Below are positions 39,386-40,859 of a stretch of DNA of 64,000 bases, in pieces (the first letter of the stretch is position 1; the number at the start of each line of letters is the position of its first letter). The DNA is from Octopus sinensis (lineage: Eukaryota). The position numbers were made by a program, and so were the translations under genes. Where the stretch lies: assembly GCF_006345805.1 (NCBI RefSeq), contig NC_043007.1, positions 65,162,001-65,226,000 on the forward strand, given 5' to 3'. Below the pieces are notes generated by a model. That model worked only from the letters and a program-made list of their open reading frames with translations, was not told where the DNA came from and did no database searches.

Positions 39386-39941
39386 TGCCCTGATGCAGTA
39401 CCAGGCAGTGGCTCTCATGCCTTCTGATCTTAACTGATTGGAAGTGTTATCATGTACATTGTTTTGTCTTGGTATAAAAGATGGGCTACAGCAAATATTC
39501 TGCTCAATACCACAGATTTGCTTGTCAGTTGTTTGACCATAACCAGTTGAGCATGTCCCTTAGTGGCTGACGATATGTGCATCTCTGATCACGAGCAGAA
39601 GTAGTGGGGGAGCATCATAGCCATGTGTTGAGAAGGATTCTTTGGGGTTTGAATAATTCACCTCTGGAAACATGGGTGTTTCGTTCAACGTCCTTAACTA
39701 ACCCTTATTCAAGGACCTTTTGAGCGGGATGGGTTACTCGATCTGAAGAAAATTCTAACTGGGCTCCACCTGCAAGGTCATGTGCTGTTTATCTTGATAT
39801 GAGATCACCATGTCGCGCACATATGGTTGTGATGCATGTGCCTGGTGTACCCTTATCAGACGGGTAGTCATGATGGGTATACTGGGCTTCGTATATTTTA
39901 CCCCAGTGTCACTTTGATGGCATGCTCTGCTCGCTCACTCA
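39386..39941 (+). mobile_element. 556-bp element copy C (full length)
   Basis: tgccctgatgcagtaccagg...ctcactca between (AAT)n and (AAT)n(GAT)n. Confidence 0.92.
39434..39510 (+). promoter_or_regulatory. CCAAT-TATA-Inr-like module inside the 556-bp element
   Basis: CTGATTGG 39434-39441, TATAAAAG 39473-39480, TCAAT 39504-39508; conserved in copies A and B. Confidence 0.35.
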
Positions 39942-40356
39942 GTAATAATAATAATAATAATAATAATAATAATAATAATAATGATGATGATGATGATGAT
40001 GATGATGATGATGATGATGATGATGATGATGATGATGATGATGATGATGATGAGGATGATGATGATGATGATGATGATGATGATGATGATGATGATGATG
40101 ATGATGATGATGATAATGATAACAATAATAATGATAACAATAATAATAATAACAATAATAATAATAATAATAATAATAATAATAATAATAAATGATAACA
40201 ATAATAATAATAACAATAATAATAATAATAATAATAATAATAAATAATAATAATAATAATAATAATAATAATAAATGATAACAATAATAATAATAACAAT
40301 AATAATAATAATAATAATAATAATAATAATAATAATAATAATAATAATAATAATAA

Positions 40357-40859
40357 TGGAAGTGGTATCATGTACATTGTTCTGTCTTGGTATAAAAGAT
40401 GGGCTACAGCAAATATTCTGCTCAATACCACAGATTTGCTTGTCAGTTGTTTGACCTTAACCAGTTGAGCATGTCCCTTAGTGGCTGACAATACGTGCAT
40501 CTCTGATCACGAGCAGAAGTAGTGGGGGAGCATCATGGCCATGTGTTGAGAGGGATTCTTTGGAGTTTGAATAATTCACCTCTGGAAACATAGGTGTTTC
40601 GTTCAACATCCTAAAGCAACCCTTATTCAGGGACCTTTTGAGCGGGATGGGCTACTCAACCTGAAGAAAATTCTAACTGGGCCCCACCTGCAAGTTCATG
40701 TGCTGTTTATCTTGATATGAGATCACCATGTCGCGCACATATGGTTGTGATGCATGTGCCTGGTGTACCTTTATCAGACGGGTAGTCATGATGGGTATAT
40801 TGGGCTTCGTATATTTTACCCCAGTGTCACTTTGATGGCATGAACTGCTCTCTCACTCA
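40357..40859 (+). mobile_element. 556-bp element copy D (5'-truncated by ~53 nt)
   Basis: Starts at tggaagtg, same 3' end ctcactca followed by (AAT)n(GAT)n. Confidence 0.92.

Follow-up and report, generated by a model that had tools for sequence, protein, structure and literature searches.

A SINE-like retroposon family sited in (AAT)n tracts of the Octopus sinensis genome, likely inserted by Dong/R4 LINEs

The LINE that partners EhSINE1 of Entamoeba histolytica belongs to the R4 group. HeT-A forms head-to-tail copies, with promoter motifs located at the 3′ end of the element. In the part of the literature available to us, non-autonomous passengers of R2- and R4-type elements are rarely described, and both EhSINE1 and the R2 SIDEs have sequence of their partner; for the element presented here, no such sequence was found among the Dong tails sampled. 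EhSINE1 is described as a noncoding element of ~550 bp that is moved by a partner LINE, falls into age classes, and has no identified small-RNA precursor; ~70 bp of its 3′ sequence is in common with EhLINE1, its A/B-like boxes are weak, and its insertions favor T-rich sites (PMC2996970). R2 SIDEs and R2/R1 hybrid SIDEs consist of a parental 5′ ribozyme joined to a parental 3′ end (PMC3414825). Tandem R1 arrays of Drosophila form when new insertions enter the target site that an older copy has regenerated on its 5′ side (PMC2718515). The octopus SINEs OK, OR1, and OR2 are tRNA-derived (Ohshima and Okada 1994, as cited in the accessible part of PMC4758252), and the available sections of PMC9115989, PMC4758252, and PMC8967140 mention only octopus Dong and tRNA SINEs. 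Dong itself targets TAA (PMC3812793, in part) and is listed as one of the most abundant LINEs with recent activity in Octopus vulgaris (PMC13282606).

Here, we describe a noncoding, non-tRNA, SINE-like retroposon family of 555 bp that is sited in (AAT)n tracts of the Octopus sinensis genome. Five copies lie in the window, by which we mean the whole 64,000-nucleotide stretch that was analyzed (Table 1; element positions are counted from +1, the G of GCCC at window position 39387). We consider it probable, taking the explanation as a whole, that a SINE-like RNA is inserted into (AAT)n tracts by TPRT, likely by Dong, and that the head-to-tail dimers are a by-product of this process.

Table 1. Features of the window. 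Descriptions of element copies refer to the 555-bp element.
Feature	Position	Strand	Description
Compound microsatellite upstream of copy A	39051..39384	+	ends in (AAT)19, the target tract
Copy A	39385..39941	+	full length, youngest subfamily; begins ATGCCC; element proper 39387-39941
Pol II-like motifs, putative	39437..39509	+	ATTGG 39437, TATAAAAG 39473, Inr-like CTCAATA 39503
Segment common with Chapaev3-like MITE	39487..39656 (+101..+270)	+	
3′ stem-loop	39840..39887 (+454..+501)	+	13-bp lower stem, 2-nt bulge, 7-bp upper stem, GGGUA loop
A-B spacer	39942..40356	+	415 nt; (TAA)n, (GAT)n, AAT/AAC repeats
Copy B	40357..40859	+	5′-truncated at +53; subfamily differs from copy A
Copy B tail and downstream tract	40860..41260	+	(AAT)10, (GAT)n, AAT/AAC repeats
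Old Penelope-like element hosting the A+B pair	38450..41718	+	coding remnants 38450-38951 and 41290-41718 on either side
Copy D	31094..31650	-	full length (31648-31094 from +1); subfamily type as copy B
D-C spacer	31009..31093	-	85 nt; (AAT)9(GAT)19
Copy C	30460..31008	-	older subfamily, 5′ intact; element part 31008-30511, broken at +498
Copy E	25213..25531	-	old (81-82%), from about +235 to +555; then AAT tract
Dong/R4 C-terminal fragment	24897..25124	-	5′-truncated; directly after the AAT tract of copy E; 82% to intact Dong ORF

All five copies counted in the first-pass annotation of this DNA were located, and three of them (A, C, and D) have the common GCCCTGATG start that it reported; where it saw a single 5′-truncated copy, there are two without a 5′ end, B and E. 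Both young loci are, as it stated, head-to-tail pairs; their spacers are microsatellites, and each pair mixes different subfamilies, with 95.2% identity between copies A and B and 92.9% between D and C. Copy A is 98.7-99.5% identical to 29 other genomic copies. The fixed 3′ end followed by (AAT)n is a family-wide property, as shown below, but does not hold for copy C, which breaks off at +498; in place of a tail, a repeat of +110..167 comes next. The (GAT)n run that was noted after the (AAT)n tail is present in three window copies but is a local feature, found in 2/30 genome copies by a strict test and in 3-4/30 by eye.

The A+B pair occupies a microsatellite within the Asn-rich linker of an old ORF that we take, from its motifs, to be Penelope-like; a Pfam search of the host remnants gave no match. 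Elsewhere in the window, there are further broken Dong/R4 fragments of different families (4414-3128 and 26789-26283 on the minus strand, 58688-58979 on the plus strand). By eye, a decayed mariner-like transposase remnant with LLHDRAPSHTA...APSGY motifs is recognizable at 23841-24530 (-), as is a second Penelope-like GIY-YIG remnant at 53939-54187 (-).

Across all loci read, AAT repeats follow 108 of 115 intact 3′ ends, never in the opposite phase, and a tail is present in none of 12 copies broken at the 3′ side, which together fix the sense strand of the element. The plus strand also folds better than shuffled sequences (z -3.5), compared with a z of 0.3 for the minus strand. Among the first 30 matches listed for a 3′ motif, 16 copies are full length and begin at +1..+5 after AAT, and 14 are 5′-truncated, 11 of which start directly after AAT repeats. 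The earlier claim of insertion into (TAA)n is supported. A fixed 3′ end with a simple-repeat tail and variable 5′ truncation are the marks of a non-autonomous TPRT retroposon, and a short, noncoding, dispersed, high-copy family with subfamilies is a SINE in the broad sense. At the 5′ side, 45 of the 77 full-length copies have an out-of-phase TAAAT ahead of GCCC, and where 5′ pieces are duplicated they restart at (A)ATGCCC, 2-5 nt upstream of +1. These two features indicate that the element, or its template, begins at about (A)ATGCCC, and they contradict the suggestion that the TG at the 5′ end is borrowed from the flank.

The family is abundant. An exact 23-mer close to the 3′ end has at least 13,967 matches genome-wide, and one at the 5′ end has 6,283. 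Nine insertions in 600 kb of blind-chosen blocks extrapolate, for a 2.72-Gb genome, to a rough copy number of ~40,000 (95% range 19,000-77,000). At least three subfamilies of different age can be distinguished among 74 full-length copies, with only 2 of 25 subfamily-variable columns falling within the first 240 bp, and full-length copies as old as 78-82% identity exist. Covariation across the whole element is negligible (covariation term -0.37) because the copies are too alike. Public sequence runs under five organism labels contain at least 71% of the sampled words of the element. In the papers searched, we found no description of the family, which looks undescribed, although of a known kind (non-tRNA SINE-like). 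Automated repeat libraries probably contain it without a name, and it may already be catalogued.

The element has no ORF of note and no A or B box, as had been annotated: neither an A box (~+8) nor a B box (~+50-70) is recognizable, and the same test finds both in two control SINEs. By this box test, the element would not be classed as a tRNA-derived SINE. A search for a tRNA-like head gave no ARAGORN hit and no Rfam match, and Rfam also missed the tRNA-head SINE at loci L018 and L019. That SINE is an AAT-associated repeat lying downstream of the element at five loci (L018, L019, L020, L183, and L206), with A and B boxes in its tRNA-like head, an internal AAT tract, and then a hammerhead-like core (CUGAUGA...GAAA, by eye; no Rfam match), which gives it a retrozyme-like appearance. 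Searches of the element itself for HDV-like or hammerhead ribozymes yielded no match, either with descriptors (run without a positive control) or in Rfam. A tblastn comparison with the loci read found no transposase or other ORF match. With phmmer, one stop-masked frame of six gave 10 matches, all unnamed, comprising mostly short singleton ORFs and one long protein that looks unrelated. The short ORFs look like translated diverged copies of the element; four of them from public contigs (P0004, P0005, P0007, and P0008), with 37-45% identity to the translated frame, hint that much older relatives exist in other samples.

Of the Pol II-like promoter motifs annotated earlier, TATAAAAG and the Inr-like motif are where they had been placed, and the CCAAT box exists only as its reverse complement, ATTGG. 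The TATA match alone occurs in 5% of 2,000 dinucleotide shuffles; all three motifs at the spacing of the element occur in 0.2% of them, a figure obtained post hoc.

Dong-driven TPRT is the likely route of insertion, since the target, the strand, and the rate of duplication at the 5′ junction all match those of Dong/R4, and intact Dong ORFs exist. Dong-R4 LINEs occupy the same AAT tracts on the same strand as the element, and truncated Dong copies have the same flanks as truncated element copies. Short direct duplications are found at 10/81 5′ junctions of the element and at 4/34 of Dong family 1. Two loci (L339 and L341) contain intact Dong ORFs of 1,272 aa, presumably of the R4/RLE type, with an RT, a zinc knuckle, and a C-terminal nuclease-like motif (domains RVT_1 and zf-RVT), and several Dong open frames exceed 1,100 aa among 150 matches. 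With the absence of boxes, the common target strand and junction scars, and the intact ORFs, a Dong-mobilized non-tRNA SINE, as first proposed, is the most likely identity of the element.

Alignment of the 3′ end to Dong/R4 3′UTRs, which the first-pass annotation had suggested as a check, gave no sequence match among the ~16 Dong tails sampled. No common sequence emerged among 38 AAT-flanking clusters or 16 hairpin families, the lowest p value, 0.005 in each set (38 and 16 tests), going with a weak score, and the 5′UTR of Dong family 1 gave no sequence match to the element. This 5′UTR is unusually long (>1.1 kb; L220, L223, L226, L228, and L234) and contains internal AAT, GAT, and poly-T. At one locus (L026), a Dong ORF is joined to the element, suggesting that the element might be the 3′UTR of a Dong family; we rejected this reading because 29 other copies of the same Dong family have their own short 3′UTR, making the junction a chimera. 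A free LINE 3′UTR with random 5′ ends was likewise rejected, given the clustering of starts at +1..+5 in 16 of the first 30 3′-motif matches listed and the lack of any joined ORF there. A CORE-type tRNA SINE also occupies AAT tracts of the window (27019-27257, 16077-16315, 29662-29866, and 4496-4787), in the opposite orientation (ATT tail). The presence of other SINEs in AAT tracts, one of them in this orientation, suggests a second targeting route, in which another enzyme may use these tracts too.

A possible point of contact between the element and Dong is a hairpin near the 3′ end. The 3′ stem-loop of the element is more stable than expected (z -5.0; none of 500 shuffles was as stable), and two subfamily changes within it keep pairing as G-U. 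Dong 3′UTRs carry a stem-loop of similar build (lower stem, 2-nt bulge, 7-bp upper stem, and 5-nt loop) 45-90 nt before the tail, for example at L009:1183-1231 (+), L039:844-892 (-), and window 3021-3069 (-), among others. It is common to at least 13 sequence-divergent Dong families and covaries across 12 of them, with 35 two-sided changes versus 15.8 in shuffles, for a structure set by hand on the sequences of the same 12 families. This makes the Dong stem-loop a candidate recognition signal for the RT. A model built from Dong alone scores held-out Dong copies and one unused family at 18-38 bits, and within the element its best match is the element hairpin, with all 16 pairs formed (9.4 bits, E 0.13). 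A search of the whole window with this model at E up to 10 did not list the element hairpin, and a loose hairpin descriptor matches 15% of shuffled tails. The resemblance of the element hairpin to the covarying Dong hairpin, in build and in distance from the tail, is thus weak.

On the explanation that we prefer, a plus-strand RNA would be transcribed, probably from an internal promoter within the first 240 bp, which are conserved, and its defined 5′ end would lie 2-5 nt upstream of GCCC. The Dong protein would bind the 3′ stem-loop of this RNA, nick the (ATT)n strand, and prime on the (AAU)n tail; second-strand synthesis would then begin by microhomology and sometimes restart, giving rise to truncations and short duplications. 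Each insertion would leave AAT tracts on both sides, where the element, Dong, and other AAT-seeking repeats could land alongside, and dimers would follow from this regeneration of the target. A more far-reaching version, in which a passenger assembled de novo parasitizes Dong/R4 RTs through the shape rather than the sequence of its hairpin, using its own internal promoter, is tentative, and we think it rather unlikely to hold in full.

Alternatively, the element could lack its own promoter, with its RNA arising by read-through from introns or from Dong copies lying upstream and its 5′ junction being set by annealing of copied AAT to the target; dimers would still be a by-product. The inherited out-of-phase TAAAT before GCCC is compatible with such an origin, as are the Dong 3′ ends found directly upstream of 8 of 46 copies and the outcome of the promoter and ribozyme searches of the element, which found neither. 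We nevertheless judge it improbable: the restart of duplicated 5′ pieces within 5 nt of +1 fits a template that ends there, the clear succession of subfamilies fits few source lineages, and no unique upstream flank is inherited by more than one of the loci read.

To place the head-to-tail pairs in context, we compiled 46 distinct copies from two pattern searches (60 loci, from which duplicates and one unaligned anchor were dropped). An adjacent copy is present for 5 of the 46 and absent for 41. The element follows another element copy in 4/46 cases and a Dong 3′ end in 4/65 (Fisher p 0.72); upstream element neighbors were seen for two copies, both neighbors being full length. Genome-wide, junctions with 10-40 nt spacers number 170 for element-element and 57 for Dong-family-1-element pairs, the former set against 6,283 intact 5′ ends. 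Because the abundance ratio used to normalize these junctions rests on 4 versus 2 counts, there may be a modest excess of element homodimers. The annotated view that dimers are typical or favored is not supported: the pair rate is about that with Dong ends, and dimers are largely no commoner than chance, a statement tempered by the 170 versus 57 short-spacer junctions. Downstream copies in 16 pairs start at varying positions (+1, 3, 17, 19, 53, 56, 84, and 332). In 11 of 14 informative pairs (for example A/B, D/C, L025, and L210), the younger copy lies upstream (p 0.057, in a sample partly biased by locus selection). Tract length was considered as the cause of this polarity and rejected, with medians of 9 units upstream and 8 downstream. 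One dimer (L204:335-1521) has two 100% identical copies and could be a local duplication, a co-insertion, or an assembly artefact. Dimers are a minority, likely a by-product of later insertion into the same tract.

These data also bear on the proposal, made in the first-pass annotation, that the upstream copy drives the downstream one, which we weigh as a HeT-A-like relay in which a Pol II promoter at +51..+123 would transcribe the spacer plus the downstream copy and only dimers would serve as sources. The post hoc rarity of the motif spacing, the conservation of the first 240 bp, and the younger-upstream polarity speak for it, and a minority of dimers could suffice as sources provided that annealing in the AAT spacer brought reverse transcription to an end. 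We regard the relay as very unlikely, given that most copies are single with an adjacency equal to that of Dong ends, that the pairs mix subfamilies, and that downstream starts vary. The relay predicts copies or tags that start near +119, and neither of the two upstream neighbors among the 46 copies is a +119..+555 tag. The first 100 of 1,236 matches listed by a junction search comprise 34 distinct loci, by manual count; of these truncations in the +95..+126 band, 7/34 start at +118..121, compared with 9/34 at +107..111 and 5/34 at +95, all at A/T microhomologies. In the first 63 Mb of C1, there are ~3 starts near +119 versus ~100 intact 5′ ends. Starts at the site proposed for transcription are thus not in excess. 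Moreover, restarts lie 2-5 nt upstream of +1 and never after a long AAT run.

We give a similarly low probability to a different autonomous mobilizer, either a Penelope-like element, in which case the family would consist of solo pseudo-LTRs or retrozymes, or a LINE outside our sample, from which the element would have copied the 3′UTR. Pseudo-LTRs typically have promoter-like motifs and occur in tandem. The range of possible partners is large, with 31 recently active Penelope-like and 51 Dong-R4 families counted in O. vulgaris (PMC13282606), against our ~16 Dong tails. Penelope pseudo-LTRs and retrozymes carry a type I hammerhead and lie at the end of a GIY-YIG ORF (bioRxiv 10.64898/2026.07.22.740005); the element does not fit this description. 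No hammerhead was found in it by descriptor or in Rfam, and in 29 Penelope-like loci other than the A+B host it never follows an endonuclease match, two copies lying upstream of one. No ORF is joined upstream in the first 30 3′-motif loci listed, and the sole ORF-element junction is the chimera described above. Finally, a solo LTR of an LTR retrotransposon, to which the TG close to the start, the terminal CA, and the TATA and Inr-like motifs might point, is contradicted by the 5′ truncation of half of the copies, the fixed and tailed 3′ end, same-strand neighbors 3-5 kb apart that enclose Dong fragments and other repeats (2 pairs read), and the 60 pattern loci, in which no internal sequence recurs beyond the 3′ end. 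The element is thus neither of the two things, a LINE 3′UTR or a solo LTR, that the first-pass annotation had set against its own reading.

Part of the element recurs in a DNA transposon. In contigs from four public runs, loose ends recurred at +104 and +270; these led to a MITE family of 460-500 bp with CACTGTGTAACA terminal inverted repeats, TWA flanks, and long imperfect inner arms (361 exact motif matches; loci L279-L338, e.g., L288 and L300). Its ends and flanks match the description of Chapaev3 in the accessible part of PMC3014272. The MITE carries +101..+270 of the element (170 bp) at 78-92% identity. Since full-length SINE copies as old as 78-82% identity exist, the simpler reading would be that the MITE captured a piece of the SINE.

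The family helps to explain the AAT-rich nests of the genome, its young copies offer polymorphic markers, and it has donated to, or has in common with, a MITE one segment. If tens of thousands of copies follow Dong into AAT tracts without a common tail, the family would show how such an enzyme chooses its RNA, a question that the covarying Dong 3′UTR hairpin makes testable. If hairpin mimicry were true, the element would serve a TAA-specific retrotransposon as a natural minimal cargo and would reveal which RNA signal Dong proteins read.

Compared with the known systems, insofar as the available parts of their accounts allow, the element is set apart from OK, OR1, and OR2 by its lack of A and B boxes, a separation made by description, with identity to OK being possible; like them, it is an abundant short octopus repeat, and a CORE-type SINE shares its AAT tracts. 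From HeT-A, it differs in that its arrays are a minority, upstream-copy 5′ tags are absent, and its motifs lie in the 5′ quarter. The R1 arrays described resemble the element in their head-to-tail arrangement and in microhomology at truncated 5′ junctions, although R1 is autonomous and targets 28S rDNA. The R2 SIDEs, as far as described, are, like it, short, non-autonomous, non-tRNA passengers that have a defined 5′ end and travel with a site-specific non-LTR element; in the octopus element, neither a ribozyme nor parental sequence was found (Dong family-1 5′UTR and sampled 3′UTRs). EhSINE1, in the account available, is similar in size, noncoding, without an identified small-RNA precursor, and divided into age classes, and the element would, like it, be moved by a LINE; unlike EhSINE1, the element has no boxes and no tail sequence in common with the sampled Dong copies, and it is confined to (AAT)n. 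While it has no ORF and no similarity to the sampled Dong UTRs, the element agrees with Dong/R4 LINEs in target, strand, 5′ truncation, junction duplications, array nesting, and a 3′ hairpin of similar build.
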